A stretch of 64,000 nt of DNA. Origin: a virus. The stretch lies in IMG/VR virus record IMGVR_UViG_3300030329_003334, positions 30,022 through 94,021 of that record; one strand, 5' to 3'. The translations under genes and the position numbers were made by a program. This document shows, piece after piece, positions 14,478 through 32,393 of the stretch. The notes beneath the pieces are model-generated. The model had not been told where the DNA came from. It was given only the letters and a program-made list of their open reading frames with translations, and ran no database searches. Positions within the stretch are counted from its first letter, which is position 1; every line of letters begins with the position of its first letter.

Positions 14478-14478
14478 C

Positions 14479-15480: not shown

Positions 15481-15498
15481 AATATTATAGTTTTGAAA

Positions 15499-15577
15499 GA
15501 AACAGAAAAAGAGGAGTTTCGTCCTCTAGGAATGAACTTAATCGTCCTTTAGGCCTCTGTTATCTCCTCAGTTTCTG
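15499..15577 (-). promoter_or_regulatory. Structured intercistronic element: terminator-like hairpin with an alternative pairing
   Basis: On the minus strand GAGGA-CGAAAC-TCCTC-TTTTT; an upstream GAGGAG can also pair with CTCCTC; tandem CCTARAGGACGA repeats. Confidence 0.55.
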
Positions 15578-15594
15578 AATCAAGGTGGATCTTT

Positions 15595-16176
15595 CTAGAA
15601 TGGCAAGTCATCTGAATCAGTAGAATTTACTTCTACTTCTGCTTTAGCGCTTTCTTTTTCCATTTTATCATTATTTCCAATCTTTAATCCAGTTGGATTA
15701 GTTGTCATAATTTCGATAAAAGGACAGAAATTAGGTAAAGCAGCATAATCTCTGTAATTATATATAACTTTTAATCTTATAAGAGTACCTTGATATTTGG
15801 TTCCCATAAAATTAATTAAATTATCACATAATTCATTGAAAGTACTTCCGCTAACTGAAAAAGAGTTTGGATCTACAAATTTTGTACAGATATGCTTAAT
15901 TCTAATAAGCATATTATTTACTCTTCTTTTTGTAGCTTCTTCTTTACTTTCGCCTTCTTTCTTATTCACTCTCTCAGGATCTACATCCCATTCTAAGTGT
16001 TTAAGTTTGTTCCCTTCTAGGTCACTAAAACTAAAACATAAATAAGTACTACCATTGCTAGCAGTTTCTTTACTAATGTTTTCTAAAGTACAGTTATCGT
16101 TTATTCCTACAGGAATACTTGATACTGAACTTTGTTCTTGCACTTGCGTGCTCTGATTAATTTCATACATACTCAT
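15595..16176 (-). CDS. ssb: Single-stranded DNA-binding protein
   Basis: Acidic C-terminal tail ending DSDDLPF; located in the replication block. Confidence 0.75.
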   Translation of the reverse strand: MSMYEINQSTQVQEQSSVSSIPVGINDNCTLENISKETASNGSTYLCFSFSDLEGNKLKHLEWDVDPERVNKKEGESKEEATKRRVNNMLIRIKHICTKFVDPNSFSVSGSTFNELCDNLINFMGTKYQGTLIRLKVIYNYRDYAALPNFCPFIEIMTTNPTGLKIGNNDKMEKESAKAEVEVNSTDSDDLPF

Positions 16177-16208
16177 AATAATTTAAATTTAAATTGGTTA
16201 CTAAAATA

Positions 16209-16895
16209 CTATTTTAATTCGAAATTAGCAAATGCATCATCTTCTTTTTCAACATTGCTATCTTCTTGATTATCAGACTGTTGTACTTCTTGAGAATCAT
16301 CTGTATGATTTTCATTAGTACTATTGTCATGAATTTCACTACTAGAAGACGTAGAAACAACTTCACCTCCAGATTTTTCTATAGCTTGATGTAAATCATT
16401 TATAGTATCTTGAGCTTTTTGTTCATTACTTTTTTCACCAGGAGGATGTTCTTTTATATAAGCTACTGGTACATCTTCTGCTTCTTCTTCTATATTTTCT
16501 TCCCACCCATCATTATCTTCTTCAACTTTAACAATTTTATAAAATACATATTCAGGATAAGTTGTACTATATATAGCTTCTTCACATACATACATATCTT
16601 CTTCTCCAGTTCCTGGTAATCCCATATATGATCTTATATCTCTGTCATGAGGTATATTTTTAATATATCCTTGCTTATTTACAGCTACACCATCTCCATC
16701 AGGAGCAGTATATATATGTAAATCTTTTTCGCCTTCACTTGGGTATGCTATACCTATTCTGTTATTATTAGCGTCTATTTTTAATCTAGACATTAGTGCT
16801 GGTGATAGTCTCATTTGGCCTTCGCCTTTTAATTTTATAGCTAAACTATCTCCGAAAGAATTCAATCTTTCTCTTCTTTTTCCAATTAGTTTCAT
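16209..16895 (-). CDS. Hypothetical protein with long acidic C-terminal tail
   Basis: 228-aa ORF, co-directional with neighbours. Confidence 0.6.
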   Translation of the reverse strand: MKLIGKRRERLNSFGDSLAIKLKGEGQMRLSPALMSRLKIDANNNRIGIAYPSEGEKDLHIYTAPDGDGVAVNKQGYIKNIPHDRDIRSYMGLPGTGEEDMYVCEEAIYSTTYPEYVFYKIVKVEEDNDGWEENIEEEAEDVPVAYIKEHPPGEKSNEQKAQDTINDLHQAIEKSGGEVVSTSSSSEIHDNSTNENHTDDSQEVQQSDNQEDSNVEKEDDAFANFELK

Positions 16896-16897
16896 AT

Positions 16898-17041
16898 TTA
16901 TTTATTTTTATTTGGTTTATCAAAATTTTTCATGTTTTTCATGAATTTTTTATTATCTTCTATTTTAAGACCTTGCTCTAAAGCATATTTTGCTAGTAAT
17001 ATAGTTCCTATTATTACTAGTATTAAAATTAATATATACAT
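16898..17041 (-). CDS. Small membrane-anchored protein (47 aa; not in ORF track)
   Basis: MYILILILVIIGTILLAKYALEQGLK...NK*; fills the gap with 2-nt spacers on both sides. Confidence 0.6.
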   Translation of the reverse strand: MYILILILVIIGTILLAKYALEQGLKIEDNKKFMKNMKNFDKPNKNK

Positions 17042-17043
17042 AA

Positions 17044-17724
17044 TTAGTTATAATATTCGTTTATAGTTTTAATTACATTACTTATATCATTTGGAATCTT
17101 AAATTCAAACATATCTCTAGGAGATTTTGCAGTTGTAGTTCCATCAGATTGAGTTATAAAATTATATATTCTCTCACCGTCAGCATTTAAAGACACGTCT
17201 GTAAATAATACTACAGTAAACATACCCTCCATAGTTATTACATTATCTACTAATTTGCCTACAGTTTTAAATTTAAGTCTTCTACTACCTGATAAATCTG
17301 TAGATTGCTCAGCATGCCCAATCATTACAAAATTAATATCTTCTCTCATATTTTTACCAGCTGTAGCGATCTCCCATGCATGTAATCCTATCTCTGTAAA
17401 TTTATCAAATCCACGTTCATTGGCCCTACGCATGTATTCATTAGCCATTATATATTGAAAATCATCTATAATTACATTCTTAATATGAGGCATATTTTCA
17501 TCTATATGTTTCATAGTTTGTACTATAGTAGAAGCTCTATCAGATTCTATATAATTACCTTGAGGATTTTCTTTAGATAATTTAGTATAATTACCTTTCC
17601 ATCCTCTAAATGGCATAGGCTTATTACCTACATTTACAATGAATGTTTCTTTAGGGTCTAAGTTTTCTAAACTAGTGGACTTCCCTGAACCACTTTCTCC
17701 GATAATTAAAATTTCTTGTGACAT
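17044..17724 (-). CDS. AAA_24/Sak4-like P-loop ATPase (recombination)
   Basis: ILIIGESGSGKSTS; VIIDDFQY; GH; KTVGKLVD; AKSP. Confidence 0.8.
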   Translation of the reverse strand: MSQEILIIGESGSGKSTSLENLDPKETFIVNVGNKPMPFRGWKGNYTKLSKENPQGNYIESDRASTIVQTMKHIDENMPHIKNVIIDDFQYIMANEYMRRANERGFDKFTEIGLHAWEIATAGKNMREDINFVMIGHAEQSTDLSGSRRLKFKTVGKLVDNVITMEGMFTVVLFTDVSLNADGERIYNFITQSDGTTTAKSPRDMFEFKIPNDISNVIKTINEYYN

Positions 17725-17725
17725 T

Positions 17726-18769
17726 TTATTCTTTTTTGTTATTATTTATTTTATCTATATCTTCTATTTTTAACTGACCTTTTTCATCAGGTATATCATA
17801 TTCATCTACTCTATTATATTTTAATATGTCTACCATACTCATTACTATTCCAGATTCTCCATCTCTATTTTTTAAAATATGCCAATATATCATTGGTTGT
17901 GATGGTTTTTCAGGATTAATAACAGGTAAATGATGTGGGCCATATGTTTGCATATTAAGCATATATGGTTTATGTGTAATTAAAACATAATCTGATCCAT
18001 GAAATACAGCATCTGATCCAAAAATATCTTTTTTCATAGGATAATTTTGCATAGGATTAGTCATTCTATCAGATTTTTCTATCTCTCTATTTAACTGACT
18101 TATAACTATAAATATACATTTAATTTCCTTTTTAGCTAGCATCATCATTCTATATAATTTTACTAAACTTTCTCTTTCACTGTCTCCAGCTTTATGTTTA
18201 GTTAATAAAGTGTGATCTATTAATATTACAGTTCCGTATTCTTCATCTTGAGTTTTAGTTTTTCTCATCTCATGAAAATGCATAATAGTATGATACATCT
18301 CTTCTACTGTACCAGGAATATCTACATAATATATACTATATTTTCTAGATATACTATTTACTACATTCTCTGCTCGTTGATACATTTCATCATCTAAGTC
18401 TTCATTGCTAGAATATAACTGACCTACAGTTCTATATAATTTATGAGATATTTTTCTACCTACTTGTTTCATTGCTAGCATCTCAAAGTTAAATGATAAT
18501 ACTGAAAAATTTTCATCAGGATTGTTATCAAAAAGACTAGTTTCTAAATCATTTGCTATACTTGATTTACCAGAACCAGACATTCCTGCTATTGTCATTA
18601 TCACGTTCCAATCTAATCCACCCATAGTTGCTTTATTAAACTTATCCCATCTAGTTGCTAAAGAATGTACTAATCCTTTTCTACGTTGATCTATGTATTC
18701 TAAGATTTCTTTTCCTGCATTTCTAATATGAGAATAAGTTAATGTTTTTTTAGATGACTTTTCCTCCAT
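17726..18769 (-). CDS. dnaB: DnaB-like replicative helicase (C-terminal domain)
   Basis: AGMSGSGKS; FNFEM; LIDH; SQLNR; KNRDG. Confidence 0.88.
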   Translation of the reverse strand: MEEKSSKKTLTYSHIRNAGKEILEYIDQRRKGLVHSLATRWDKFNKATMGGLDWNVIMTIAGMSGSGKSSIANDLETSLFDNNPDENFSVLSFNFEMLAMKQVGRKISHKLYRTVGQLYSSNEDLDDEMYQRAENVVNSISRKYSIYYVDIPGTVEEMYHTIMHFHEMRKTKTQDEEYGTVILIDHTLLTKHKAGDSERESLVKLYRMMMLAKKEIKCIFIVISQLNREIEKSDRMTNPMQNYPMKKDIFGSDAVFHGSDYVLITHKPYMLNMQTYGPHHLPVINPEKPSQPMIYWHILKNRDGESGIVMSMVDILKYNRVDEYDIPDEKGQLKIEDIDKINNNKKE

Positions 18770-19412
18770 AATCTATGTTGTTGTTGTTATTATTATTTGT
18801 ATTTTTCATGTGCTCTTGTACATCTATATATACTTCATCTCTTAAATAATTTTTAAGAGTTTTAATATACATCATTTTTCCGCTTTTTTTCAAATTATCT
18901 ACATAATAAGATAAAAGTTCTAACATTTTTTGATGCTTAAGTTTATTAGATTTTAAAATGCCTATATATATTTCTTTGCATAATTTTTTCTGTAATCTTA
19001 AACTTGATTCTGCTCCATTAGATCTCAAAGTGCTTAAAGGATATGCTTCATAAAATTCTTCAAATTCTTTAATATACTTTTCTAATGCTAAATCGTTTAG
19101 ATCATCATCTCCTAATAGTAAATTATCAGCTTTAGCGTCTGCAAAACTATCTACCATAGATTTAATAAATCTTATTCCTTTAGCGGTTGGCTTAAATCCA
19201 TCCAAATTAACTTCTTTGGCATCTCTTCTCACCATTATATATTTTGCTTTGACTAAAGGAGCAACATCTTTCATTGTTATTGTATCTATTTCTTTATAAG
19301 TACGTAATAAATATACTTTATTATATACATAACAATATATTATAAAATAATCTTTTAGACTTAAGTTATTATCTATTAATATGTTGATAAAAGGTTTTCC
19401 AAATGGTATCAT
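18750..19412 (-). CDS. Putative replication initiator/helicase loader
   Basis: FEEFYEAYP motif of phage replication proteins; overlaps the DnaB start. Confidence 0.45.
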   Translation of the reverse strand: MIPFGKPFINILIDNNLSLKDYFIIYCYVYNKVYLLRTYKEIDTITMKDVAPLVKAKYIMVRRDAKEVNLDGFKPTAKGIRFIKSMVDSFADAKADNLLLGDDDLNDLALEKYIKEFEEFYEAYPLSTLRSNGAESSLRLQKKLCKEIYIGILKSNKLKHQKMLELLSYYVDNLKKSGKMMYIKTLKNYLRDEVYIDVQEHMKNTNNNNNNNIDYGGKVI

Positions 19413-19645
19413 TTTCCTTTTTTAATTTCTGCTTCCCATTCAGCCCAAGTTTCATGCATTTGTTCTGCTTGTTCCGCTGTTATAAATTGTTTTTCTTTTA
19501 AATGTATTTTATGATCATGTTCTTCTTCAAAAAATATTTCTTTTGTTTTAGTAGCTTTATATATATTCCACAATTTTCCTCTAAAAAATATTCTTTTAAT
19601 CTTTTCCTTCTTCTGGTTTGCTAGCTTTTTTAACTGTTGTATCAT
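19409..19645 (-). CDS. Hypothetical protein
   Basis: Overlapping ORF in the operon. Confidence 0.55.
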   Translation of the reverse strand: MIQQLKKLANQKKEKIKRIFFRGKLWNIYKATKTKEIFFEEEHDHKIHLKEKQFITAEQAEQMHETWAEWEAEIKKGK

Positions 19646-19934
19646 AATTTGTAAAGTTTAGTGAAATTAATAATAAAATTATATATCCTGCTAGATCCCA
19701 TAATGAATCTGCTGTCTTACTTGTAATTCCTCCATTTTGTAATCTATGTAGTTTATCATCTATTCTACAACATAATCCAAATTGTTTAGGAGTCATTGCT
19801 TCCATATTCGATTTTGTTCCAAATATAGGATCTCCTTGAGTAGCAGAATCACCATAGTCTTGATTTTTAGCAGTAAGTAAATTAATTAATTGTTCACCTA
19901 CTTTTTTAATTTTCCATTGTGTGTGTTTTTCCAT
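19596..19934 (-). CDS. DUF1599 / nucleotide modification associated domain 1 protein
   Basis: LLTAKNQDYGDS...RIDDKLHRL...DSLWDLAGYIIL. Confidence 0.8.
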   Translation of the reverse strand: MEKHTQWKIKKVGEQLINLLTAKNQDYGDSATQGDPIFGTKSNMEAMTPKQFGLCCRIDDKLHRLQNGGITSKTADSLWDLAGYIILLLISLNFTNYDTTVKKASKPEEGKD

Positions 19935-19947
19935 AATTTTAATTTTA

Positions 19948-20061
19948 AAGGGCGAGGTCGGCCAAGTATTTATGGTGGCAGTCTCCCTATCATATAAACC
20001 ACATTTGACATTTTTAAAGCTAGCTCGTTAGACTCTAAAATACTCAACCTGTTTGGCCCTT
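19948..20061 (-). promoter_or_regulatory. Structured intercistronic RNA element
   Basis: Alternative closings AAGGGC/GCCCTT and GGCCAA/TTGGCC; inner AGTATTT/AAATACT stem. Confidence 0.45.
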
Positions 20062-21238
20062 ATGTTAATATTTCATTTAATGTTTCTATCCATTCACAGT
20101 TATAATCATTTTGAGTTCTCTTTCGTACCCATTTAACTTCCTGAGTACCACGTACATAGAGATTTATATACAAAGCTTGTTTACCTTCTATCATTCTTAA
20201 TACTCTACCTCTTCTTTGTATATTATCTAATGCTTTAGAACTACCTGCAGCACATATTCCAAGAGAACATTCTGGTACATTTAAACCAGCATTTAATGCT
20301 TTAACAGAACTTATTAATCTTACTTTAGTTCTTCCATCACCGAATTCTTTGAGAGCTCGTTTCTTGTCTTTAAGTTTCATTTTAGAATGAAAAGTTATAC
20401 ACTCTTCTCCTAAAATATCTTGTAGATTCTCCGCAAAGTTAATACTTTGACTAAAAACAAGACCCTTTCTGTTAGGAAATTTATTAACAATTTTCTTGAT
20501 TAATTCTACTTTATTTACAGCATTATAGCAAATATTTTTCCTTTTTTGCATTGCCATATAAAATATATTTGCCCATTTAGCTTCTTCTTTATCTTTAGAA
20601 TTCTTTAATTTTGTAGCATTCTCAAAAGCTACAAATCTACCTCCTAATTCATTAGTTGCTTTATTAAATAATGTATCAAATCTCTTATATTCTTTAACTT
20701 CTTCTTCGGTAAAACTTACTCCTAAATTATATACTTTATATGGTGATACTAATTCTAGATCTAATGCATCTAAAGTATCTGTTTTTTTAATTGTAGGCGC
20801 AAATCCTTTTAGATATTCTTTATATTCATCATTTTCTGGTTCTGTAGCTGTTAAACAATATATATTATCAAAACTATTATTTTCGTATAAGTTTCTATAT
20901 TCATAAGATAAAGTAGTATGTACTTCATCTACTATTAATATAGAACAGGTATAATTTTCCCATTTGTATACAGTTTGTATACATTGTATATCTATTCGAT
21001 CTTTATATTTAGATAATTTCCATTTTTTTAATTCATTTGGCCATTCATTATCTCTTAAATTTTCAGTAGGAACAACTATTAAAGCCTTATTATATATATC
21101 TTTAGATAAAATATGATCAATTGCCATTAATCCCATTTTAGTTTTACCTATACCTGTAGCTGCTATAGAAGTTCCTTTACAATTATTATTTATCCACGCA
21201 TCTATATGTTCTTTTTGTTCTTTATCTTTATTATTCAT
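20060..21238 (-). CDS. Superfamily 2 DNA/RNA helicase
   Basis: ATGIGKT; IVDEVH; LTAT; LNAGLNVP; QRRGRVLR. Confidence 0.88.
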   Translation of the reverse strand: MNNKDKEQKEHIDAWINNNCKGTSIAATGIGKTKMGLMAIDHILSKDIYNKALIVVPTENLRDNEWPNELKKWKLSKYKDRIDIQCIQTVYKWENYTCSILIVDEVHTTLSYEYRNLYENNSFDNIYCLTATEPENDEYKEYLKGFAPTIKKTDTLDALDLELVSPYKVYNLGVSFTEEEVKEYKRFDTLFNKATNELGGRFVAFENATKLKNSKDKEEAKWANIFYMAMQKRKNICYNAVNKVELIKKIVNKFPNRKGLVFSQSINFAENLQDILGEECITFHSKMKLKDKKRALKEFGDGRTKVRLISSVKALNAGLNVPECSLGICAAGSSKALDNIQRRGRVLRMIEGKQALYINLYVRGTQEVKWVRKRTQNDYNCEWIETLNEILT

Positions 21239-21486
21239 ATTAAAATATTTATAATTTTTCTAAATCTTGCCATTACTTGTGTAAAAGTTTTGGAAGATTT
21301 ATTATAATACATTGGACTTAGAGGTACAAACTGATGCTTTTCCATTGTTTCATTTACTCCCTTTTGTAATCTTTTTTTATTAGGACCTTCAGCTAAAATA
21401 ACTTCTTCTATATCAGGCATAAACCTATCGTGAGGCCCTCTGTCATTACCAAAAAGCTGTTTTTTCTTTTTTGTTTGTTTTTTCAT
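21235..21486 (-). CDS. Hypothetical protein
   Basis: 83-aa ORF overlapping the helicase start. Confidence 0.55.
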   Translation of the reverse strand: MKKQTKKKKQLFGNDRGPHDRFMPDIEEVILAEGPNKKRLQKGVNETMEKHQFVPLSPMYYNKSSKTFTQVMARFRKIINILI

Positions 21487-21503
21487 GTTGTGTGTAATTT
21501 AAT

Positions 21504-21707
21504 AAAAGAGCGGGTAAGCGCTCTTTTGGTACTACGACTGATAAAACAAGTATTAGTTCTAGCTTACCCTAGAACTGTAAAAAGGAAAGAAAGAGAAATT
21601 GCATAACTGTATGTATATTACTAACGCAATATTTCATATACTATCTAGTTTTCTCTCTTTCTAACCTATTAATTAAAGGCAGAAATCATGACATAACGAC
21701 CTTTAAT
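21504..21707 (-). ncRNA. Cluster of four intercistronic hairpins including a kissing-loop pair
   Basis: AAAAGAGCG-GGTAAG-CGCTCTTTT; AGTTCTAG-CTTACC-CTAGAACT; AGAAAGAGA/TCTCTTTCT; ATTAAAGG/CCTTTAAT. Confidence 0.6.
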
Positions 21708-21951
21708 CATTTTTATCTTCTTTAAATACTACAGTTTTAAATCTATCATCTTCTGGATTATTATCTGTATATTTATTTTTCCATTTATCTACCTCTGCAA
21801 AATATAGTTTTCTGAATTTATCTAATTCTTCTCGCGTATCTTTAATTTCTATTGATACTACAGAAAACGTTAACAACGATCCAAGTATTGCTCCTCCTGC
21901 TATTGATATAGCTATTACCAGTAAAGGTACAAATATATTTGTATATTCCAT
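21703..21951 (-). CDS. Small membrane protein
   Basis: N-terminal hydrophobic helix followed by a charged tail. Confidence 0.6.
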   Translation of the reverse strand: MEYTNIFVPLLVIAISIAGGAILGSLLTFSVVSIEIKDTREELDKFRKLYFAEVDKWKNKYTDNNPEDDRFKTVVFKEDKND

Positions 21952-22196
21952 TATTTCTTAAATTTAATATGTTTTATTTTTATTTTACTTATACAAGATT
22001 CAATTTTAATTATATCTATGTATCCATTTTTATCATAAGGAACATAGTCTAATCCTGTAATTTTATTAAACTTCTTCATATCATTATCTATTAGATTTAA
22101 TATATACTTTTGAAAATCTATCATTTTCTGAAGTTCTTCTCTGAATTGTTTTTTAGTTATTTTATTCTTTTTTAACTTTTTAATTGTTTCTTTCAT
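21951..22196 (-). CDS. Hypothetical basic protein
   Basis: Translationally coupled to its neighbour. Confidence 0.55.
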   Translation of the reverse strand: MKETIKKLKKNKITKKQFREELQKMIDFQKYILNLIDNDMKKFNKITGLDYVPYDKNGYIDIIKIESCISKIKIKHIKFKK

Positions 22197-22218
22197 AATT
22201 TTAAATATTAAATAAAAA

Positions 22219-22345
22219 AGAAGAGAGTCCAGCTGACCTGAGTAACGTTGTTGTACCCTTCAGGAATAAACCACTATAGTGTTTCGTTTAATTTATTCTC
22301 TGGGGAATCTATTTCCAGTACTTCTGAGGTATGAAACTCTCTTCT
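22219..22345 (-). ncRNA. Multibranch intercistronic RNA element downstream of polA
   Basis: 10-bp closing stem AGAAGAGAGT/ACTCTCTTCT followed by a U-tract on the minus strand; inner stems CCTGA/TCAGG and GAATAAA/TTTATTC. Confidence 0.55.
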
Positions 22346-22356
22346 ATTTATATTAT

Positions 22357-24255: not shown

Positions 24256-24808
24256 CTTTTAATTCTTCTTTACAATCATCACACATATTATAAGCTTTCT
24301 TTAAAAGCCCAACAAATCTACCACTCATGCTTTTAGCATCTTCACCTTCTATAATAAGGTCATCTCTAGGAATTAAACTAAGATTATTATTTTCTTCTTT
24401 TATTTCAAAACTCATTGCTGCCATATTTTCTCCTAAAAATTCAAACCATAAATTCAATAATTCTATTCTTTCTTCATGCTGAGAAGGCCTCATCTGCATT
24501 GCTTCTTCTTTAGTTAAATTTTCTGTTATTTCTCTAGGTAATGCCCAAGCTTCAGATGCAAAACAAATAATATTAGTTTCAGCTGTTCTGATCATATCTA
24601 ACATTATTTCTAATACTGCGTCCTTACCATTTTGACTTTCGAATCCTTCCATAGGTAATCCAAATTTCTTTCTATAACCATCTTTAGATAATAAAAATAA
24701 AGCTGGAGATAATCTTAAATTTTCATTTAAATATAAATTAGTAACAAACTTTAATGTAGCTAATTTAAAATCATTAATTTCTTCTTTAGTTGGTTTTTCA
24801 ATTGACAT
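24248..24808 (-). CDS. Hypothetical protein
   Basis: 186-aa ORF containing SEAW...RPSQH..RIE. Confidence 0.65.
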   Translation of the reverse strand: MSIEKPTKEEINDFKLATLKFVTNLYLNENLRLSPALFLLSKDGYRKKFGLPMEGFESQNGKDAVLEIMLDMIRTAETNIICFASEAWALPREITENLTKEEAMQMRPSQHEERIELLNLWFEFLGENMAAMSFEIKEENNNLSLIPRDDLIIEGEDAKSMSGRFVGLLKKAYNMCDDCKEELKDD

Positions 24809-24844
24809 AATAATATAATTTATTGGTTAATACTTAAAAAAATA

Positions 24845-24946
24845 CCTCAACTCTAATAGGATCCATGATCTAGATAAAAACGGAAACTATAAAAATCTAG
24901 GTATAGTTCTTCAATGTATAAACTATACAATCCTATTAAAGTGAGG
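24845..24946 (-). ncRNA. Three-way-junction intercistronic RNA element
   Basis: Closing stems TAATAGGAT/ATCCTATTA and CCTCA/TGAGG; inner hairpins CTAGAT/ATCTAG and GTATAGTT/AACTATAC. Confidence 0.55.
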
Positions 24947-24957
24947 GTGAAATATTT

Positions 24958-25251
24958 TTAATCTTCAGTCTCGTCAGGTGGCGTGTCTTCTGATTGTTGT
25001 TGTGCGGCTTCTATATATTTTATGGTTTGATTTACCATATCTTCTTCATGACCTTTAAATTCTTTGTAATAAGTTCCCATTAATTTACTTGGCCATATAT
25101 GTTTACCTTTAAGTTTTTGTTTTTCTATTGTTTTAATTAACTTACGTCTAGCTTTATACTCTTCATAAGTTTCTCCTTCTAATCTATATGATGCACTAGA
25201 AAATTTAAATTCTTTTTCTACAGATCTATCTTCTTTTTTATCTTTAGCCAT
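24958..25251 (-). CDS. Hypothetical protein (start revised to MAKDKK)
   Basis: ATG overlaps the upstream stop; RLEGETYEEYKARRK motif. Confidence 0.6.
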   Translation of the reverse strand: MAKDKKEDRSVEKEFKFSSASYRLEGETYEEYKARRKLIKTIEKQKLKGKHIWPSKLMGTYYKEFKGHEEDMVNQTIKYIEAAQQQSEDTPPDETED

Positions 25252-25586
25252 TATTTTGTTTTTAAAACATCTAATAAATAACATTCAGAATCATTATGTA
25301 AATAATTATATATATCTATTATTTTATATTTACCTCTTTCATTAAATGTTATAGTATTACCTATAGATAGCACAGGGCCTCCTTCATACGCTATTTCTAT
25401 TATTTTTCCTTCTTCTTTATCATCATATTTTATGGATGAAGTTGGATCATCAGAATAAATAATTATTCCTCCTTCGTCTTCAGGTAAAAACTTAAATGTA
25501 CGTCTTTGTTTGTCTTTATTTAATATATTTATTACTCTTCTCTTCATATTAAATGCAAACATACAAAAAATAATATACATTAGCAA
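25251..25586 (-). CDS. Hypothetical protein
   Basis: ORF with an EGGP motif; true start may lie further downstream. Confidence 0.55.
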   Translation of the reverse strand: MLMYIIFCMFAFNMKRRVINILNKDKQRRTFKFLPEDEGGIIIYSDDPTSSIKYDDKEEGKIIEIAYEGGPVLSIGNTITFNERGKYKIIDIYNYLHNDSECYLLDVLKTK

Positions 25587-25589
25587 CTA

Positions 25590-25823
25590 TTACATATTTT
25601 TTTTCAACATAATAGTGTGTATATCATGGCATCTTCTGTTAGTTTTAAATGGAGATTTCATTGTATTATAAGATTCAAATTTATATAAAGGTACACTTAA
25701 TTCTATTTCTCCACTATATTTAAAATAGTTATCAAAATTAATTACAGTACTTTTATATAATTCATTTAATCTTTGTTCTGTTTTTTGTTCTTCTATAAAA
25801 TTTTTTATTATATCTTCGTCCAT
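25590..25823 (-). CDS. Hypothetical protein
   Basis: Co-directional small ORF. Confidence 0.55.
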   Translation of the reverse strand: MDEDIIKNFIEEQKTEQRLNELYKSTVINFDNYFKYSGEIELSVPLYKFESYNTMKSPFKTNRRCHDIHTIMLKKNM

Positions 25824-25993
25824 AAGTCTTCTTCTTTTAAATTATATTTTTTCATTAAGTTTATTAATTTTCTCTTTAATGTACTTTTTTTAGCACTTGG
25901 AACATCAAACGGACTATCCATTACAACTCTTTTCATTCTAGTTATTGTTTTAGATAGATTTTTACAAATTTCTATTGCAGATTCTTTTGACAT
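25808..25993 (-). CDS. Hypothetical protein
   Basis: Co-directional small ORF. Confidence 0.55.
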   Translation of the reverse strand: MSKESAIEICKNLSKTITRMKRVVMDSPFDVPSAKKSTLKRKLINLMKKYNLKEEDLWTKI

Positions 25994-26020
25994 AATTATT
26001 TGGTTTTAGTTAATAAAAAA

Positions 26021-26070
26021 AGAACGGAGCTACAAATTGGCTAGTCGTAATACTTGTAATACTCCGTTCT
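26021..26070 (-). terminator. Long hairpin with U-tract (terminator or processing site)
   Basis: AGAACGGAG/CTCCGTTCT 9-bp stem, inner TACAA/TTGTA; A-run on + reads as U-run on -. Confidence 0.6.
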
Positions 26071-26098
26071 CTCTCCTCGTACAACACACAACAAGAAA

Positions 26099-26578
26099 TC
26101 ATTTAAAGACTTTATTAAATTTATCAGAACAATCTTCTAATTCATTATCTATAATATCTCTTATTCTCATTAATATAGAAATTAAAGAATTGTCTGTTAA
26201 ATCTTTTAAATTTATATTAAAATTAGATAGCTTAATCTTTTCATCTTTATATTTGTCTTTCTTATTAATATATTTATCTATTTGTTTAAGTTTATCTACA
26301 AAATCACTAGGATTATCTACATCAGCTAAAGATTTTAATAATCCATCAGCATTAGAAGAATATTCATCCTTATTATTATCAGGTAACTTAATTTCTACAT
26401 TAATAGATATTTTATTAATACTAGAATTCTTATCCATATTAATAATAGCTTCACATGCATTATTAATAGTTTCCTTATAGTTTCTAAATTTATCACAAAG
26501 TTCTACTATATTCTTTGTTTGATTAAACTTAGCTTTTACTATATCATAATTTTTAACTGTATCTTTTTTACTAGCCAT
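26099..26578 (-). CDS. Hypothetical protein
   Basis: 159-aa ORF. Confidence 0.6.
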   Translation of the reverse strand: MASKKDTVKNYDIVKAKFNQTKNIVELCDKFRNYKETINNACEAIINMDKNSSINKISINVEIKLPDNNKDEYSSNADGLLKSLADVDNPSDFVDKLKQIDKYINKKDKYKDEKIKLSNFNINLKDLTDNSLISILMRIRDIIDNELEDCSDKFNKVFK

Positions 26579-26605
26579 AATATTTATTTTTATACATTTA
26601 TAATA

Positions 26606-27001
26606 TTAGAAATCATTCTTTTTCTCACTTAAATGAGATTCAAAACCTTCTCTATCAACACCATATGCTTGATAGCTGTTTTCTTTTCCATATGCTCTTT
26701 CAAGTATATTTTCGAATAATGCTTTAGTTATTTCAGGTGGAGGTAAATGGTGTGCCATTTGTTCTGTCATTCTATGTACAGTATTTGCATTACCAAATGC
26801 CATGCCTAAAACTAATATATCATTAGCATTTTTTGGATTAACTTTTTTAATTATTTTTTCTATAAGTAAAGATTTACTAATATCTCCTTCTTTTGCACCT
26901 ATTTCATGCATAAATTTAGGTATATCCATAGGATCTAAATTAGTAGGAACAGCTTTTGAGAAATGTTTTTCTTCATGGTCAAAATTAAATTTTATTTCCA
27001 T
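26606..27001 (-). CDS. Hypothetical protein
   Basis: 131-aa ORF. Confidence 0.6.
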   Translation of the reverse strand: MEIKFNFDHEEKHFSKAVPTNLDPMDIPKFMHEIGAKEGDISKSLLIEKIIKKVNPKNANDILVLGMAFGNANTVHRMTEQMAHHLPPPEITKALFENILERAYGKENSYQAYGVDREGFESHLSEKKNDF

Positions 27002-27554
27002 CTTTCTTGTTTTTGTTGTTAATATTTATTTCTTCTATCATACTACATATATTTTCATATTCAGAACTATCTATCATACTATCTTCAGATTTCTCTAAAG
27101 TCATTTCAAAATTATTTATAATAATATGACCATGTCCTTTAAATATAGAATAGATATTTTCACCAGGTAATATAACATATGTTGCTGTATGAACTAATTC
27201 ATCTTTTATCTTATACGGAATTACTTCTCTTGTAACTATATCACCAGCTATTTTTGTTCCAATATAATTAAGTGCTTTATCAGGTGGTACTCTTTTCCAA
27301 ACAGGAATGCCTATACTATTTCTAGACTGAAACATTAATCTAGATCTAACTAATCCAAAAGGACAATTAACGCTAACAAAATCTATTAAATAATACTCAA
27401 CTGGTTCTTGATCAGTTTCTTTTGTTATATTAATATATCCTTTTATACCATTAGAACTTTTTATTCTAATGGCTTTAGGATTATCAGATAATCTAACACC
27501 AACTATTTCAATCTCTCTGTCTTCTTTTATAAATTCTACTTCAGTCATCACCAT
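26985..27554 (-). CDS. Hypothetical protein (possible OB/beta-fold)
   Basis: GDIVTREVIPYKI....HTATYVILPGE beta-strand pattern. Confidence 0.6.
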   Translation of the reverse strand: MVMTEVEFIKEDREIEIVGVRLSDNPKAIRIKSSNGIKGYINITKETDQEPVEYYLIDFVSVNCPFGLVRSRLMFQSRNSIGIPVWKRVPPDKALNYIGTKIAGDIVTREVIPYKIKDELVHTATYVILPGENIYSIFKGHGHIIINNFEMTLEKSEDSMIDSSEYENICSMIEEININNKNKKDGNKI

Positions 27555-27738
27555 ATGCTTTAATTAATTTTAAAAGTTGCTCTGCTACATCTCCATTAAA
27601 TTCTGCATTCTTTCTGATCCAATCTCTGTTTTCTTGTATACACTTTAATAATAACTCTTGATTCTGTATAATTATTTGTAAATATTCTCCAATAATATAA
27701 TCTTTATCAGAGGTTTTCTGTTGTGTTGTTTTGCTCAT
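27541..27738 (-). CDS. Hypothetical protein
   Basis: Overlapping small ORF. Confidence 0.55.
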   Translation of the reverse strand: MSKTTQQKTSDKDYIIGEYLQIIIQNQELLLKCIQENRDWIRKNAEFNGDVAEQLLKLIKAYGDD

Positions 27739-27916
27739 TTTTCAATAGTTTTTTATAATCATTAATATAGTCTAATAAGTGTTTTGCATATGTAGTATAA
27801 TACATTGCGCCTTCAAAGTGAAATCTCACTTGTTCATCTTCTATTGCGGCTTCATACGCTTCTCTTAAACTTTTTTCTTTTTCCACCAATATACTTACTA
27901 ATTTCATTTTTGCCAT
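27707..27916 (-). CDS. Hypothetical protein
   Basis: AYEAAI...FHFEG...T.YAK.LLDYI small phage protein pattern. Confidence 0.6.
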   Translation of the reverse strand: MAKMKLVSILVEKEKSLREAYEAAIEDEQVRFHFEGAMYYTTYAKHLLDYINDYKKLLKNEQNNTTENL

Positions 27917-27918
27917 AT

Positions 27919-28221
27919 CTATTCTTTTTTAATTACTCTATCAAATTTATACCTACCCCAAAAGTTTTTCCTAAATATAATTAAATCATCTATTTTAATC
28001 AATGCAAATTCTCCAAATGTACAATAATAGGTATCACCATTTTCTAATGCAATTGCATAATTTGTATAAGGTTCTTCTATTATCTTATCTATAACTTTGA
28101 GTGTAATTTCTTTATTATATTTAAAATCATTAGCCATTGTTTGGCTATAACTATTATGACTTAGTAACATAAAAACAGTACTAATCAAAGATAGCATTAT
28201 TATTTTTATTATTGCTTTCAT
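27919..28221 (-). CDS. Small exported protein
   Basis: Bacteroidota-type signal peptide ending SYS|Q. Confidence 0.6.
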   Translation of the reverse strand: MKAIIKIIMLSLISTVFMLLSHNSYSQTMANDFKYNKEITLKVIDKIIEEPYTNYAIALENGDTYYCTFGEFALIKIDDLIIFRKNFWGRYKFDRVIKKE

Positions 28222-28242
28222 TTTAAATTCATTTAATTGTTA

Positions 28243-28662
28243 TTATTTTACCCATTCTCCTTCTTTTATATCTTTCATCTCTTTAGATATTAATCTAATT
28301 TTATTAGATCTAATTACAGACATTAATGTTTTCTTTAACTCATACATCTTATTTTCTATATCTTCATAGAACTTTGGAGATGATTTCACTACATCAAAAA
28401 TGTGAATATAATATCTACATTTAAGATCATAATTACCAACATGGTAATTTCTAGAACTTATATCTATATTCTTTTGATTATAAGATTTTAAATTTACTTT
28501 TTGAATAAATTTGTATACATCTTTACTTATTTGTAAAGTATATAGTATTTCCATAGCTCCATCTAATAATAATTTATATCTATATCCTTTATTTCTAATA
28601 GTAAACAAATCCTGCGTTATATTTTCTTGAAATATAACTGGCTTTTTAGTTTCCTTTTCCAT
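28243..28662 (-). CDS. Hypothetical protein
   Basis: 139-aa ORF. Confidence 0.55.
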   Translation of the reverse strand: MEKETKKPVIFQENITQDLFTIRNKGYRYKLLLDGAMEILYTLQISKDVYKFIQKVNLKSYNQKNIDISSRNYHVGNYDLKCRYYIHIFDVVKSSPKFYEDIENKMYELKKTLMSVIRSNKIRLISKEMKDIKEGEWVK

Positions 28663-28933
28663 TATTAAATAGTTTAATTATAATTTCTGTTAATATATCT
28701 ATTTTTCCTTCTAATATTTTTATATCTGTTGTAGCTTTATGTCTTTCATTAAGCAATTCATTCTTAGTTGCTTCTAACTCTTTTTGTACATCTATTGTAC
28801 ATGCATTACCTCTTGCTGATGGATAATTTTGTATCATTTCTAATACATCTTCATAGTTTAATATGTCATAATCAGCTTGGCCAGCACCATCATGACCTAT
28901 TTGTATTGAATTTAATATATCTTCTGCTTTCAT
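28646..28933 (-). CDS. Hypothetical coiled-coil protein
   Basis: 95-aa ORF. Confidence 0.55.
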   Translation of the reverse strand: MKAEDILNSIQIGHDGAGQADYDILNYEDVLEMIQNYPSARGNACTIDVQKELEATKNELLNERHKATTDIKILEGKIDILTEIIIKLFNNGKGN

Positions 28934-28951
28934 ATCTTTATATTTTAAGTA

Positions 28952-29167
28952 TTATTTAACTTTACATTTATTCTCATCAACACACTTTTCATCCTCTTCT
29001 AAATCCCATATAACTACCATGCCATCTCCTCCTTCACTATCCCAAGTATCTGGATGGTTATCTCTTATTTTCTCTGCTTCTTCCATTGTATCTACATTTG
29101 CTATGAAATATGTACTAACTCCACAACACATACATCCTATTTGCTGTACTAAATATCTTTTCTTCAT
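28952..29167 (-). CDS. Hypothetical protein with CxCC motif
   Basis: IGCMCCGVST. Confidence 0.6.
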   Translation of the reverse strand: MKKRYLVQQIGCMCCGVSTYFIANVDTMEEAEKIRDNHPDTWDSEGGDGMVVIWDLEEDEKCVDENKCKVK

Positions 29168-29185
29168 CTTTTTATATTTTAAATG

Positions 29186-29317
29186 TTAATATAAACTGTA
29201 AAATCCTGATAAATATAAAATGAGAAGAAATATTGATGTTCCTAATACAGATCCCCAAAATCCAACCCAAATTACTATTCCTAATAATTCTAATATTATT
29301 TTTAATATATCTTTCAT
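29186..29317 (-). CDS. Small membrane protein (43 aa; not in ORF track)
   Basis: MKDILKIILELLGIVIWVGFWGSVLGTSIFLLILYLSGFYSLY*; A-rich leader. Confidence 0.55.
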   Translation of the reverse strand: MKDILKIILELLGIVIWVGFWGSVLGTSIFLLILYLSGFYSLY

Positions 29318-29344
29318 AATTTCTTTTTTAAATAAATTGATAAA

Positions 29345-29560
29345 ATTCGCCTTGGGACTACCTCTATTCGCTAGAATAGAAGTAGCGTGCTCGTCAGCAC
29401 TATTTCTGAGTCGCTAAACTCAACCCGATTATACTCCATAAAAGAGAATAACCCACATATCGGACTTCAATGTGTTTATTAATGAGCCTATATATAAGGA
29501 CTCATCCTTAGAGATGCACATGAGGCTTAGCATAAAGCTTTGAACCGTTCGCATCGTTTG
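29345..29560 (-). ncRNA. About 215-nt multi-hairpin non-coding RNA candidate
   Basis: At least 7 consecutive hairpins (TCTATTC/GAATAGA, GTGCT/AGCAC, TGAGT/ACTCA, CACAT/ATGTG, ATGAGCCT/AGGACTCAT, GATGC/GCATC and others); GC higher than flanks. Confidence 0.6.
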
Positions 29561-29564
29561 TTTA

Positions 29565-29831
29565 TTACCTATAAGCTGGGCAATTTTGCGCTGCTTGCCA
29601 ACTAAATCCTCCACAAGAAGATTGAGTTGACATACAAGATGAGAATAAAAACATACATATAATAGCTATTGCTATTGATGTAAGTATTCCATATCCTAAT
29701 CCTTTTTCTATTCTCTTGTGTTTTATATCTCTATCTATTCTTTCATAGTTAGCCCTCATTACTTCTGGATCTGATTTATAAGGACTAATCTTCTGTCCTT
29801 TACTATTTACCATATATTTTATTTCTGCCAT
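29565..29831 (-). CDS. Small membrane/lipoprotein-like protein
   Basis: TM segment ending FLFSSC, then ...SSCGG...NCPAYR. Confidence 0.6.
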   Translation of the reverse strand: MAEIKYMVNSKGQKISPYKSDPEVMRANYERIDRDIKHKRIEKGLGYGILTSIAIAIICMFLFSSCMSTQSSCGGFSWQAAQNCPAYR

Positions 29832-29938
29832 GATTTCTAATTTTTTAATTAATAACTATCTCTTTCTTTTGAAGAAGGTAATAGAACTATTGCTAGTCCT
29901 ATCACCACTAATATTTTGAATAACATTATAAATTCCCT

Positions 29939-30088
29939 TTACAACTTAGTAGGGATAGAATGCATTCCTATACCTATTATACAAAATGGTAAAATGATAA
30001 CTAAACCATTATGACTTTCATAACCAATACCAAATGCAAATAGTTTTTCAAAACTTGCTTTAAGAACGAACTTTTTTCTAATTTCCAT
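29939..30088 (-). CDS. Small protein (49 aa; not in ORF track)
   Basis: MEIRKKFVLKASFEKLFAFGIGY...IILPFCIIGIG...*; starts in an AGAAATCATG context. Confidence 0.6.
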   Translation of the reverse strand: MEIRKKFVLKASFEKLFAFGIGYESHNGLVIILPFCIIGIGMHSIPTKL

Positions 30089-30124
30089 GATTTCTAATTT
30101 AAAGTTAATACTGTTAATTGTGTG

Positions 30125-30721
30125 TTAATACCTGTAATGTCCTGTTATTTTCCAATCAAATAAACAATCTTCAATTACTTGTCCATAACCTATGTTATGT
30201 ATCACTTTGTATTCAGAGTGATAGTTGCTTGGTACATTTACTACTATACCAATATGATTTAATCCTCCTCCTAAATCCCAGGTTACAATATCACCTGGTA
30301 AATATTTAGTTGGATTAGGTATTGTCGGCAATGATTCTCCATATCTTTCAAATAATGTTTGAAGATTTGGTACTCTTCTATGATCTATATTTGGATCAAC
30401 TTTATCATCTGTTAATTGATAACAATTTAGACCTATTTCTCTAGTGTACTTAATATCTTCATGTATTAATTGTTGTAAATCAATACCTAATTTCCTATAA
30501 GCTCTTATAACAACGTCAGTACATACACCTATGTTATCTGGTACATCACCCATTGGATAATCTATTGCATAATAAGAACCATCATACTTTATAGTCCAAT
30601 CTTCCAATGATTTCGCTGCTACTGCTAATTTATCATAAAAGCTAGGATTGTCTTGTGCATTTATATTTAAAAATATAAATAAACAATAACTAATAATCAA
30701 TAAAATTCTATTCGTTTTCAT
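30125..30721 (-). CDS. DUF1287 (YijF-like) exported protein, papain/NlpC-P60-like Cys-His fold
   Basis: YDGSY..IDYPMGDVP..GVCTDVVIRAYR..GIDLQ; DPNIDHRRVPNL; PGDIVTW; HIGIV; HNIG; signal peptide. Confidence 0.88.
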   Translation of the reverse strand: MKTNRILLIISYCLFIFLNINAQDNPSFYDKLAVAAKSLEDWTIKYDGSYYAIDYPMGDVPDNIGVCTDVVIRAYRKLGIDLQQLIHEDIKYTREIGLNCYQLTDDKVDPNIDHRRVPNLQTLFERYGESLPTIPNPTKYLPGDIVTWDLGGGLNHIGIVVNVPSNYHSEYKVIHNIGYGQVIEDCLFDWKITGHYRY

Positions 30722-30869
30722 GATTTCTTTTGTGTTTATCCTTCCTGTTATAAGCCTTCTTACTTTTATGTACTCTAGATGAGGGAGGCCTTATACCTAA
30801 TTCTAGATCAACTCTTCTTCTTATTGCTCTTTTTCTCTTTATACTTAGTCTTTTATTTTCTCGTGCCAT
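30708..30869 (-). CDS. Basic 53-aa peptide with ArfA-like motif (not in ORF track)
   Basis: MARENKRLSIKRKRAIRRRVDLELGIRPPSSRVHKSKKAYNRKDKHKRNHENE*; AGAAATCATG start context. Confidence 0.65.
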   Translation of the reverse strand: MARENKRLSIKRKRAIRRRVDLELGIRPPSSRVHKSKKAYNRKDKHKRNHENE

Positions 30870-30880
30870 GATTTCTTTTT

Positions 30881-30970
30881 TTATTTATCATCATTACATA
30901 CTGAATATACTATACATACTAGTAATAGCATTACTACTGCAGTAATTATAAGTGGTGGTAATATTGTCAT
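30881..30970 (-). CDS. Single-pass membrane micropeptide (29 aa)
   Basis: MTILPPLIITAVVMLLLVCIVYSVCNDDK*. Confidence 0.45.
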   Translation of the reverse strand: MTILPPLIITAVVMLLLVCIVYSVCNDDK

Positions 30971-30994
30971 ATCATTTAAATATTAATATAAAAA

Positions 30995-31153
30995 GAACAG
31001 TACTAATAAATCCATGTATCTTAGCGGTATTTATAAAGTATTTTCTTGAATTTAATCAAGACGTTTTATACTATTTATATCTACGGTTATAAATAATAAT
31101 CACTGATCAAGTGATATTTAAACTAACTGTTCAATGTCACACCTAAATGTGAC
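30995..31153 (-). ncRNA. Multibranch intercistronic RNA element
   Basis: GAACAGT/ACTGTTC closing stem encloses TCTTGA/TCAAGA, TATTTATA/TATAAATA and ATCACT/AGTGAT hairpins; GTCACA/TGTGAC hairpin adjacent. Confidence 0.55.
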
Positions 31154-31157
31154 TAGT

Positions 31158-31367
31158 TTATTTTATTCTTTTGTTTTTATTTGGGATTATATCTGCATAT
31201 GCAAACACAGCAGCTGCAAATAAAAAGATTAATGAGTAGATTAAACAGAAATTACTCTGAAATGACCCACTGTTAGATCCATATAATCCTACATACATTA
31301 ATAAGAATGCCTGTATAACAGACATGATTGATCCTATTATGTATTTGTTCTTACTTATTTTCTTCAT
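31158..31367 (-). CDS. Two-TM small membrane protein
   Basis: Two hydrophobic helices. Confidence 0.6.
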   Translation of the reverse strand: MKKISKNKYIIGSIMSVIQAFLLMYVGLYGSNSGSFQSNFCLIYSLIFLFAAAVFAYADIIPNKNKRIK

Positions 31368-31402
31368 GATTACTCTTTTTATAGTCTTTTATTCTATTAA
31401 AT

Positions 31403-31707
31403 TAAAGAGTACACAATAGTAATGTCCCACAGAGTTATTACTTCAGTGTGGAACTGTGTTTGTCCTCTCCATTACTATTGTGATTACTCTTTATGTTATT
31501 GCTATACTATATTAATGTATAGTGTTGTATGTTGTATTAAAAAACAAGTGAAATACCCCTGTTGAGAGGTATAACACTCGTTTTTGTTCAGATTAAGCAT
31601 TAACTGTTCGATTCTTAACCAAATCAATGGAAGAACGGATGCATAGCTTCCGTATAATCTGTTATATTCTACTTATAGTAGTAAGAGTTTGAGCAAAGCT
31701 CTCTTAC
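31403..31707 (-). ncRNA. Array of long hairpins after the first early gene
   Basis: 22-bp near-perfect stem (31403-31424/31470-31493); stem 31540-31585 with G-U pairs only on the minus strand; GTAAGAG/CTCTTAC. Confidence 0.6.
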
Positions 31708-31946
31708 GAGAACTTTAACCACGTGAACTCAATCACTTCACCAGTTTCTTCGTCCGTGACTGAAGAGACTTCAGTGTGAACTTTAGTTGCGCCTTCAATA
31801 TTGAGATAGTCGCCTATCTCAGGATTGATGCCTTCCTTCAAGTTGGTGAAGCCAACTGTAGATTGAATAATGTCACCCATTTGTTGCTCAACGGCAACAG
31901 TGGCTGCTTTGCCACTTTCTGATACATACAAAACTTTTGCTTTCAT
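31704..31946 (-). CDS. First early gene, small acidic beta-rich protein
   Basis: 80 aa; GC and codon usage visibly different from neighbours. Confidence 0.65.
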   Translation of the reverse strand: MKAKVLYVSESGKAATVAVEQQMGDIIQSTVGFTNLKEGINPEIGDYLNIEGATKVHTEVSSVTDEETGEVIEFTWLKFS

Positions 31947-32100
31947 AATTTCGATTTTAGAATTTCATACGGGGACTATCCCCGCACAAAACTGAGTGGG
32001 AGTCTTTGATAGTGGTGGTTTATGATCTCGAATATATATATATTTTTATTTTTTTTCTTCAAAATTTTTTTTTAGAATTTTTTTATTGTATATTTGCATA
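31947..32100. promoter_or_regulatory. Divergent early/late switch region (candidate virion-RNAP promoter/leader, genome end or origin)
   Basis: Strand switch; GC-rich GGGGACTATCCC...GGGAGTC hairpin, then (AT)n and poly-T tracts. Confidence 0.5.
32089..32096 (+). promoter_or_regulatory. Bacteroidota sigma-A -7 element
   Basis: TATATTTG matches TAnnTTTG; -33 box weak. Confidence 0.5.
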
Positions 32101-32103
32101 TCA

Positions 32104-32303: not shown

Positions 32304-32339
32304 GTGTATCTAGTAGAAGTATAAATACTTAATAAAAGT

Positions 32340-32370
32340 TTTGGTAATTAAAATAAATGTTATATATTTG
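32340..32370 (+). promoter_or_regulatory. Consensus Bacteroidota housekeeping promoter (-33/-7) for the late operon
   Basis: TTTG (32340-32343)-N19-TATATTTG (32363-32370). Confidence 0.8.
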
Positions 32371-32393
32371 CATTGAATTGCTATATAATAGTT

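Follow-up and report, generated by a model that had tools for sequence, protein, structure and literature searches.

The DNA analysed here (the window) is the final 64 kb (64,000 nt, positions 30,022 to 94,021) of the IMG/VR record IMGVR_UViG_3300030329_003334, a complete 94,021-bp virus with direct terminal repeats. The source phage is a marine crAss-like phage. Its nearest relatives are marine metagenome contigs, and its DNA polymerase shares only ~30% identity with the polymerases of gut crAss phages. The contigs and loci of related phages used for comparison carry L-numbers (L002, L166 and so on). One minus-strand block of 21.7 kb (10310-31946) contains the sole leftward genes, and all others run rightward. 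Replication genes occupy its 10310-24808 part (polymerase A, two helicases, Sak4, primase, exonuclease and an ATPase), and small open reading frames (ORFs) without assigned function fill 24958-31946. Here we describe the structured RNA elements that lie between the genes of this block (Table 1), among them two motifs named M1 and M2.

We folded 11 gaps of the block on the minus (coding) strand and compared them with dinucleotide-preserving shuffles. Whole-gap z ranged from −1.35 to −7.5, with 8 of the 11 gaps below −2.1, whereas 36 coding segments of 120 nt from the same strand gave a mean z of −0.02 (sd 0.91, minimum −1.65). The stems comprise 7-22 pairs and all lie downstream of minus-strand stop codons. 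When 40 nt of coding sequence was added at either end, the closing stems formed with an ensemble probability (P) of 0.83-1.0. The exception was the 7-bp long-range closure 30995-31132, which surrounds four hairpins and is followed by a U run; its P was 0.00 once the flanks were added. An earlier note on this DNA, made from the sequence alone, had placed strongly structured elements in most large gaps of the block, and each of the nine positions it quoted is the low-coordinate end of a real minus-strand helix. Two of the gaps, however, are partly coding: 29168-29428 holds a 43-aa membrane ORF (29186-29317, minus strand) and 30870-31157 a 29-aa membrane ORF (30881-30970, minus strand). The note had seen no comparable series in the late operon, and we agree: the rightward 72-kb block has only about five gaps of at least 50 nt, and a strong hairpin was present in one of three tested (54306-54381).

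Table 1. Structured elements in the minus-strand block (window coordinates; z against dinucleotide shuffles; P, ensemble probability of the closing stem)
Element	Position	Strand	Architecture	z	P
M1	15499-15581	−	14 pairs around 47 nt; between the gene for a protein like single-stranded DNA-binding protein (SSB-like gene) and primase		
Element with 11-bp closing stem	19960-20049 (in 19948-20059)	−	additional outer 4 bp; two inner hairpins; weak U tract	−1.35	0.83
Two perfect hairpins	21555-21576 and 21504-21527	−	6-nt loops GGUAAG and CUUACC, complementary		
M2	21583-21667	−	85-nt irregular hairpin (P1/P2/P3), 4-nt loop, ~28 pairs; then 20-nt pyrimidine tract		
Element after DNA polymerase	22212-22351	−	17 pairs around 103 nt with nested helices; U run	−2.15	0.98
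18-pair stem around two hairpins	24845-24946	−	followed by 7 U in 8 nt	−4.5	0.97
18-pair hairpin after 159-aa gene	26020-26071 (element 26020-26098)	−	U tract	−3.5	
Three adjoining hairpins	29357-29423	−	7, 5 and 13 pairs; no U tract		
13-bp hairpin	29877-29906	−	4-nt loop; weak U tract; sense −17.5 versus antisense −8.7	−2.65	
Five-hairpin cluster	30995-31153	−		−1.6	
Most structured gap	31403-31661	−	partly conserved in L002 and L008	−7.5	
Branched domain	31589-31661	−	within the 31403-31661 gap		
19-pair hairpin	31540-31585	−	U run; within the 31403-31661 gap		
21-pair stem around 12-pair hairpin	31403-31493	−	within the 31403-31661 gap		
Predicted terminator at convergent block end	10238-10304	−	branched stem, then eight U; beyond the range of the earlier note	−4.95	

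U-rich sequence follows most of the stems. At least 5 U occurred in the next 8 nt after 9 of 15 stems, versus 7.3% of all 8-mers on the strand (binomial 2e-7), in agreement with the U-tracts that the note had described on the coding strand. All seven pyrimidine runs of at least 10 nt on the sense strand fall in gaps, although gaps account for just 9.6% of the block. Short, terminator-like closing loops (~3-10 nt) were found at 21504-21527, 26020-26071, 29877-29906 and 31540-31585, and the stems of the elaborate elements enclose 47, 68, 103, 65 and 124 nt. From the end of an element to the next start codon the distance is 15-45 nt.

The elements do not form a single family or system, because they have no common sequence, their content is mixed, and their presence differs among close relatives. 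All-against-all BLAST of the gaps found no sequence in common within the genome. Rfam covariance models gave no matches at gathering thresholds over the 64 kb and, at E up to 5 over 10000-33000, nothing in the gaps, so that the comparison with Rfam suggested at the outset pointed to no known family; ARAGORN found no tRNA and no tmRNA. The idea of one family is thus abandoned. Its companion claim, that the elements have architecture but not sequence in common, stands within the genome but not beyond it, since for three elements related sequences exist in other phages.

The structures belong to the RNA of the sense strand, as the earlier proposal of RNA-level action had assumed. Summed folding energy was −330 kcal/mol for the sense and −289 kcal/mol for the antisense strand, with 32 versus 15 G-U pairs, and the M2 covariance model scored 103 bits on the sense strand versus 27 bits on the reverse strand at the same locus. 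In three homologues of M2, all one-sided substitutions preserve pairing via G-U, and two G-U pairs are invariant.

In the marine crAss-like phage phi14:2, the entire replicative module is early, rifampicin-resistant and transcribed by the virion polymerase gp66 (bioRxiv 10.1101/2020.03.07.982082). Because of this analogy, it is a reasonable premise that the minus block is an early operon transcribed by a virion RNA polymerase (RNAP). A reading of the replication module as "middle" and host-transcribed, as in crAss001, was dropped, as the whole module is early in phi14:2. The phage has a single 4,528-aa ORF (window 131-6070, within genome positions 22505-36091) in which the catalytic motif DFDID of crAss virion RNA polymerase is present, so that the polymerase forms part of a giant fusion protein. 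The Bacteroidota −7 box TAnnTTTG does not occur on the sense strand of any minus-block gap, consistent with virion-RNAP transcription, and sigma-70-like sites showed no excess in the gaps. The only intergenic full Bacteroidota-type −33/−7 promoter within the window (TTTG, 23 nt, TAnnTTTG) lies at 32340-32370 on the plus strand, just ahead of the first rightward gene. At the other end of the rightward genes, the ORF from 62888 (plus strand) runs past the end of the window and genome at 64000; because the terminal repeat is 117 bp long, this ORF probably continues at the record start, hence no gap there.

We considered that the elements might act as DNA hairpins or cruciforms, either as structure-based promoters for the virion RNAP, as in N4, or as priming or origin signals beside the replication genes. 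Like architecture without common sequence is what a structure-read signal would produce, the elements end shortly ahead of start codons, and the −7 box is missing from the minus-block gaps, with the full promoter heading the opposite block. In phi14:2, moreover, the early transcripts have no common promoter or upstream motif that could be found, and the virion polymerase can use denatured or single-stranded DNA as its template in vitro (bioRxiv 10.1101/2020.03.07.982082). On the other strand, however, G-U pairs become A-C mismatches, and a tract of U on the sense strand would have no role. N4 promoter hairpins are also small and conserved in sequence, unlike the elements here, and in many relatives the same genes are not preceded by any element. 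Because of the G-U dependence and the strand asymmetry in the M2 scores, we disfavour promoter or origin models at the DNA level and regard them as very improbable.

We then set the gaps beside the equivalent junctions of related phages. Before the gene preceding the polymerase, where 24845-24946 lies in this genome, a plain terminator of 13 bp is found in L002, L007, L008 and L012. Plain canonical terminators stand at equivalent junctions before the 186-aa gene and in L169, L170 and L176, and they are common throughout the early blocks of relatives. The hairpin and U tract after the 159-aa gene are kept in five relatives, and the arms differ in sequence but pair in each. Other sites are more variable. 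After the polymerase gene, this phage and four relatives have long-range structures of 160-186 nt that are unrelated (168-186 nt in the relatives), and the two closest relatives have only 29 nt. Before the primase, gaps in relatives measure 0-12 nt versus 57-205 nt, and the SSB-like/primase junction of other relatives is filled by different inserts of like architecture or by plain terminators, or has no gap at all. For the elements 19948-20059 and 21487-21702, relatives show no counterpart. Between the helicase and 112-aa genes, a gene for a D12-class (Dam-type) N6-adenine methyltransferase is found in relatives (L002:9984-10799), in place of which this phage has a structured element of 125 nt (19935-20059).

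Taking into account the plain terminators at the same junctions and throughout the early blocks of relatives, we consider leaky (partial) termination together with protection of mRNA 3' ends to be the most economical function of the elements, and a somewhat probable one. Most of them would be intrinsic-terminator-type hairpins of the sense strand that punctuate an early/replication transcript of ~22 kb, each with a 5' arm rich in purines, a 3' arm of pyrimidines and a U-rich tail. Partial termination (attenuation) and 3'-end protection may then set the relative dosage of neighbouring genes, for example of an abundant SSB-like protein versus a scarce primase. Many of the stems close independently folded inserts of 45-125 nt rather than a small loop, and the inserts are modular, in that the same insert occurs in different stems across phages and the same stem holds different inserts in close relatives. 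The folds, their strand, the covariation, the U tracts, the variable occupancy and the exchange of cassettes are observed, whereas termination itself, the polymerase affected and the part played by the inserts are what we infer. Attenuation fits better than efficient termination for the polymerase that reads the replication genes, because no host-type promoters lie downstream. Among the options that the earlier note had listed, the attenuator is thus the best fit, given the U tracts and the plain terminators of relatives, and nothing in the analysis points to decoys or antitoxins.

M1 lies directly upstream of the primase (14479-15480, minus strand). GAGGAG/CUCCUC and an outer 6 bp close a core of 48 nt, in which two CCUANAGGA repeats pair as a single hairpin with a 2x2 purine internal loop, and a U/C tract follows on the 3' side, 30 nt ahead of the primase start. 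A 97-nt stretch with M1 is 99% identical to L002, compared with 66% for the flanking proteins. Pattern scans of IMG/VR found six distinct M1 variants in marine phage contigs. The core (~48 nt) is near-invariant in them, although the flanking primase is only 31-67% identical, and the closing stems differ wholly by lineage (GAGGAG/CUCCUC, CAUAAAG/CUUUAUG, UGAGAG/CUCUCA and a fourth), being only 6-7 bp in several variants. Both partners are altered in four of the six P1 pairs of M1, and the paired fraction over all cells is 94.9%. M1 occupies the SSB-like/primase junction in four lineages, between which primase identity falls as low as 31%. One variant (L036, L037, L039) sits at another location, where a stable hairpin replaces the terminal loop and no U tract follows.

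The gene upstream of M1 (15595-16176, minus strand) encodes a 193-aa protein whose C-terminal DDLPF is an acidic tip typical of SSB. It has no Pfam or PHROG match, and in the ESM Atlas it lies close to DUF669 phage proteins; judged from its sequence, it is probably the phage SSB. Pfam and PHROGs searches with the flanking proteins of no assigned function returned no RNA-binding or RNA-processing protein.

Further copies of M1 were sought in several ways. Its covariance model found none in 1.4 Mb of related loci (91 sources) or in the rest of the genome, BLAST of M1 and M2 against GenBank phages gave no match, and neither model matched in L030 (the phi14:2 comparison). A degenerate M1 pattern gave only chance matches in bacterial and archaeal genomes, plus the L002 contig, labelled there as part of a Nanoarchaeota metagenome-assembled genome. 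This entry, L042 (NZCU01000020.1), is the same 18,547-bp phage contig as L002, deposited within a "Nanoarchaeota archaeon" assembly, and the assignment is almost certainly a binning error. A hammerhead was considered for M1 because hammerhead-like words flank the core, and was rejected by inspection: stem III lacks room and the words vary between variants. We also rejected a guanidine-II-like reading of the repeated ACGA, as the tetraloop hairpins are absent and Rfam has no match.

The core of M2 recurs at non-syntenic sites in two other genomes, being 88% identical to L002:2253-2322 and 95% identical to L166:11108-11172. The latter has different neighbour genes and belongs to a 93-kb phage that is otherwise only weakly similar to this one. 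The inner stem is common to these contexts. The outer stem differs in each yet is complementary, with four compensatory pairs. Covariation across related genomes, which the earlier note had proposed to look for, is thus seen in the closing or outer stems of both M1 and M2, at four pairs each. The M2 covariance model found no additional members in the 91 sources. Beside M2 are the two perfect hairpins of Table 1, of which 21504-21527 closes with a U run 17 nt ahead of the next gene. The loops 21512-21519 and 21562-21569 (minus strand) are exact complements over 6 nt, extendable to 8 bp, and could form a kissing complex, or an alternative helix that undoes the terminator hairpin.

The element after the 159-aa gene has conserved parts too. 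A stretch of 17 nt just 3' of the stop codon (26082-26098, minus strand) is invariant in all five relatives, as is one of 14 nt near the top of the hairpin (26045-26058, minus strand), whose pairing partner differs among them. Parts of the two stretches are complementary over 5-6 bp, and a pseudoknot or a protein site is possible. A pattern scan with the 14-nt stretch was too unspecific to use (>119 chance matches).

Such conservation raises a second reading, in which M1, M2 and perhaps 26020-26098 are sequence-specific functional RNAs (a small ribozyme, or a regulator that responds to a protein or ligand) and the terminator-like stem is merely a closing helix. The near-invariant M1 core between a variable P1 and divergent primases, its recurrence at one junction in four lineages, the M2 core conserved at 88-95% with invariant G-U pairs, and the two fixed stretches of 26020-26098 amid differing stems all fit this reading, and an M1 variant with a stable hairpin for a loop and no U tract is what a modular RNA fold predicts. 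Yet Rfam has no family for them even at E up to 5, no more members appeared in 1.4 Mb of related loci or in GenBank phages, and since relatives do without them at the same junction, any function is dispensable. The high identity could also stem from recent lateral transfer rather than constraint, and the cores lack covariation because they do not vary. We regard a purely sequence-specific function of this kind as possible, though not the outcome we expect. As an addition to leaky termination, M1 and M2, whose sequences are strongly constrained, probably carry a sequence-specific role, for instance protein-regulated termination or a stable processed RNA.

Comparison of near-identical loci shows what is exchanged. 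From the end of the upstream gene through both stem arms and the U tail to the start of primase, L173 and L191 are 97-100% identical, but the 66-nt interiors of their stems bear no relation to each other. Likewise, L002 and L007 have a common outer stem and tail at one site with differing interiors, one of which is M2. From these comparisons, the exchange unit is therefore the hairpin interior, and the stem and tail are the stable frame. A third conserved element with two domains, M3 (L006:1688-1830), sits at the 24845-24946 junction in L006 and L010 and recurs in L171 (15200-15320) and L172 (8330-8470). Its domain 2 is a long hairpin that contains an inner GNRA-capped hairpin, and a U tract comes next; between phages, the stems of M3 seem to covary. 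In another part of L171 (2160-2437), a tRNA-like gene with T arm, acceptor end and CCA lies between two copies of a 26-nt direct repeat, all within a long closing stem, an arrangement that resembles an insertion accompanied by a duplication.

The clean swap of interiors between near-identical flanks, the three non-syntenic sites of M2 in three genomes, and the differing presence among close relatives are also what one would see if the inserts were miniature mobile elements of a selfish kind, inserted into hairpin loops and of no use to the phage. Each genome, however, has one copy, and we saw no conserved terminal repeats, target duplications or transposase. Conserved pairing compatible with G-U argues for selection on the RNA, and variable stems around a conserved interior are the reverse of a miniature inverted-repeat transposable element (MITE). 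Because of the single copy and the conserved interiors with variable stems, we disfavour this explanation and think it quite improbable.

Several stems exceed what termination needs: 18 pairs at 24845-24946, 21 at 31403-31493, 19 at 31540-31585 and ~28 in M2. We therefore weighed the possibility that the elements are processing sites of an RNase III type, at which the stems would be cut, the mRNAs would gain protective 3' hairpins, and the inserts might be freed as small RNAs. The elements are intercistronic RNA structures of the sense strand, and excised stable RNAs are laid out in the same way, with a closing stem that surrounds a folded insert. Known RNAs of that layout include rRNA precursors and the T7 R sites. 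Set against the ~20 bp or more of double-stranded RNA, often with an internal loop, in a T7-type site, the three long-stemmed elements named above and M2 (18-28 bp) are of suitable length, whereas M1 (6-14 bp) and the short hairpins are not. Relatives, however, have hairpins of 10-14 bp at the same junctions, too short for the enzyme, the closing stem of M1 is just 6-7 bp in several variants, and the enzyme has no need of the U or pyrimidine tract that follows most stems. The two long intergenic regions of phi14:2 give rise to abundant stable early non-coding RNAs whose function is unexplained (bioRxiv 10.1101/2020.03.07.982082), a point in favour of processing. As a general account of the elements we find RNase III processing unlikely, though it is possible for the stems of 18-30 bp.

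Several points also weigh against leaky termination. It is a prediction from sequence and folds, and stems that close inserts of 45-125 nt are atypical of intrinsic terminators and may terminate poorly. A full U tract is lacking at 19948-20059, 29357-29423, 29877-29906 and 21555-21576, and the M1 variant without a U tract (L036, L037, L039) implies that M1 is not inherently a terminator. In Thermus phage P23-45, the virion polymerase, which is related to the crAss type, uses terminators with a conserved 26-nt motif (PMC10770324). Finally, no host-type promoter was found after the elements, so efficient termination would starve essential replication genes; the elements must therefore be leaky, or be ignored or read differently by the polymerase. 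A bolder proposal goes further. The inserts (M1, M2 and their equivalents in relatives) might be a new class of small exchangeable structured-RNA cassettes in terminator stems of the early operon of marine crAss-like phages, released as stable early small RNAs, short counterparts of the phi14:2 non-coding RNAs, or read through their structure as start or stop signals by the virion RNAP. We put this forward tentatively and consider it rather unlikely.

What is new is the pair of conserved RNA motifs M1 and M2, supported by covariation and absent from Rfam, together with the exchange of hairpin interiors in conserved frames of terminator type. crAss-like phages are among the most abundant phages known, yet the signals behind the onset, end and course of their early transcription have still to be worked out. 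This genome supplies about a dozen precisely mapped candidate RNA signals in the early block, and M1 and M2 are now defined, with covariation support, and can be synthesised directly. Interior exchange inside conserved stems is an unusual form of modular evolution for regulatory RNA. If the elements are merely leaky terminators, they represent ordinary gene-dosage control by a phage.

Among known systems, the rpsU-dnaG-rpoD operon of Escherichia coli offers a close parallel, in which an intrinsic terminator upstream of dnaG acts as an attenuator within the operon. Like such attenuators, the elements here combine a stable hairpin and a U-rich tract on the transcribed strand between cistrons of an operon, and like the dnaG terminator one of them directly precedes primase, of which only small amounts are needed. 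Intrinsic terminators have a loop of 3-8 nt, whereas many stems here close folded inserts of 45-125 nt; their 3' arms consist nearly entirely of pyrimidine, conserved motifs occur among the inserts, and the polymerase is possibly a two-barrel enzyme carried in the virion. Phage T7 has about ten intercistronic hairpins with internal loops that are RNase III sites. These resemble the present series as intercistronic RNAs of a long phage transcript with common architecture and little common sequence, and some stems here are 18-28 bp with internal loops. Unlike the elements described here, the T7 sites have neither U tracts nor large inserts, and relatives of this phage bear short hairpins at the same sites.

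The virion-RNAP promoters of N4 are small DNA hairpins with a stem of 5-7 bp, a 3-nt loop and conserved sequence, located on the template strand, whereas the stems here are larger, G-U-dependent and without common sequence. MITE or Correia-like elements occur in multiple copies per genome with conserved terminal inverted repeats and target duplications, as opposed to the single copies, varying stems and conserved interiors seen here. In T4-type phages, PeSL (promoter-early stem-loop) cassettes place terminator-type stem-loops between early genes (PMC2839356, PMC4122927). As in the phages compared here, such small stem-loops mark points of insertion, deletion or replacement between close relatives. 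PeSLs are, however, repeated, conserved in sequence and equipped with a strong sigma-70-type promoter, where we found neither repeated sequence nor promoter motif, and recombination swaps the genes between PeSLs, while here it is the hairpin interior that is swapped.

The two-barrel virion RNA polymerase of P23-45 serves pre-early units that end at unusual terminators with the conserved 26-nt motif (PMC10770324); those terminators have a sequence motif in common, the elements here do not, and the phages are unrelated. The early non-coding RNAs of phi14:2 come from regions of 0.7-1.7 kb with tRNA-like parts, and no sequence similarity to the present elements was seen. Both phages nevertheless belong to the same order, and in both the early replicative block contains structured intergenic regions (bioRxiv 10.1101/2020.03.07.982082).

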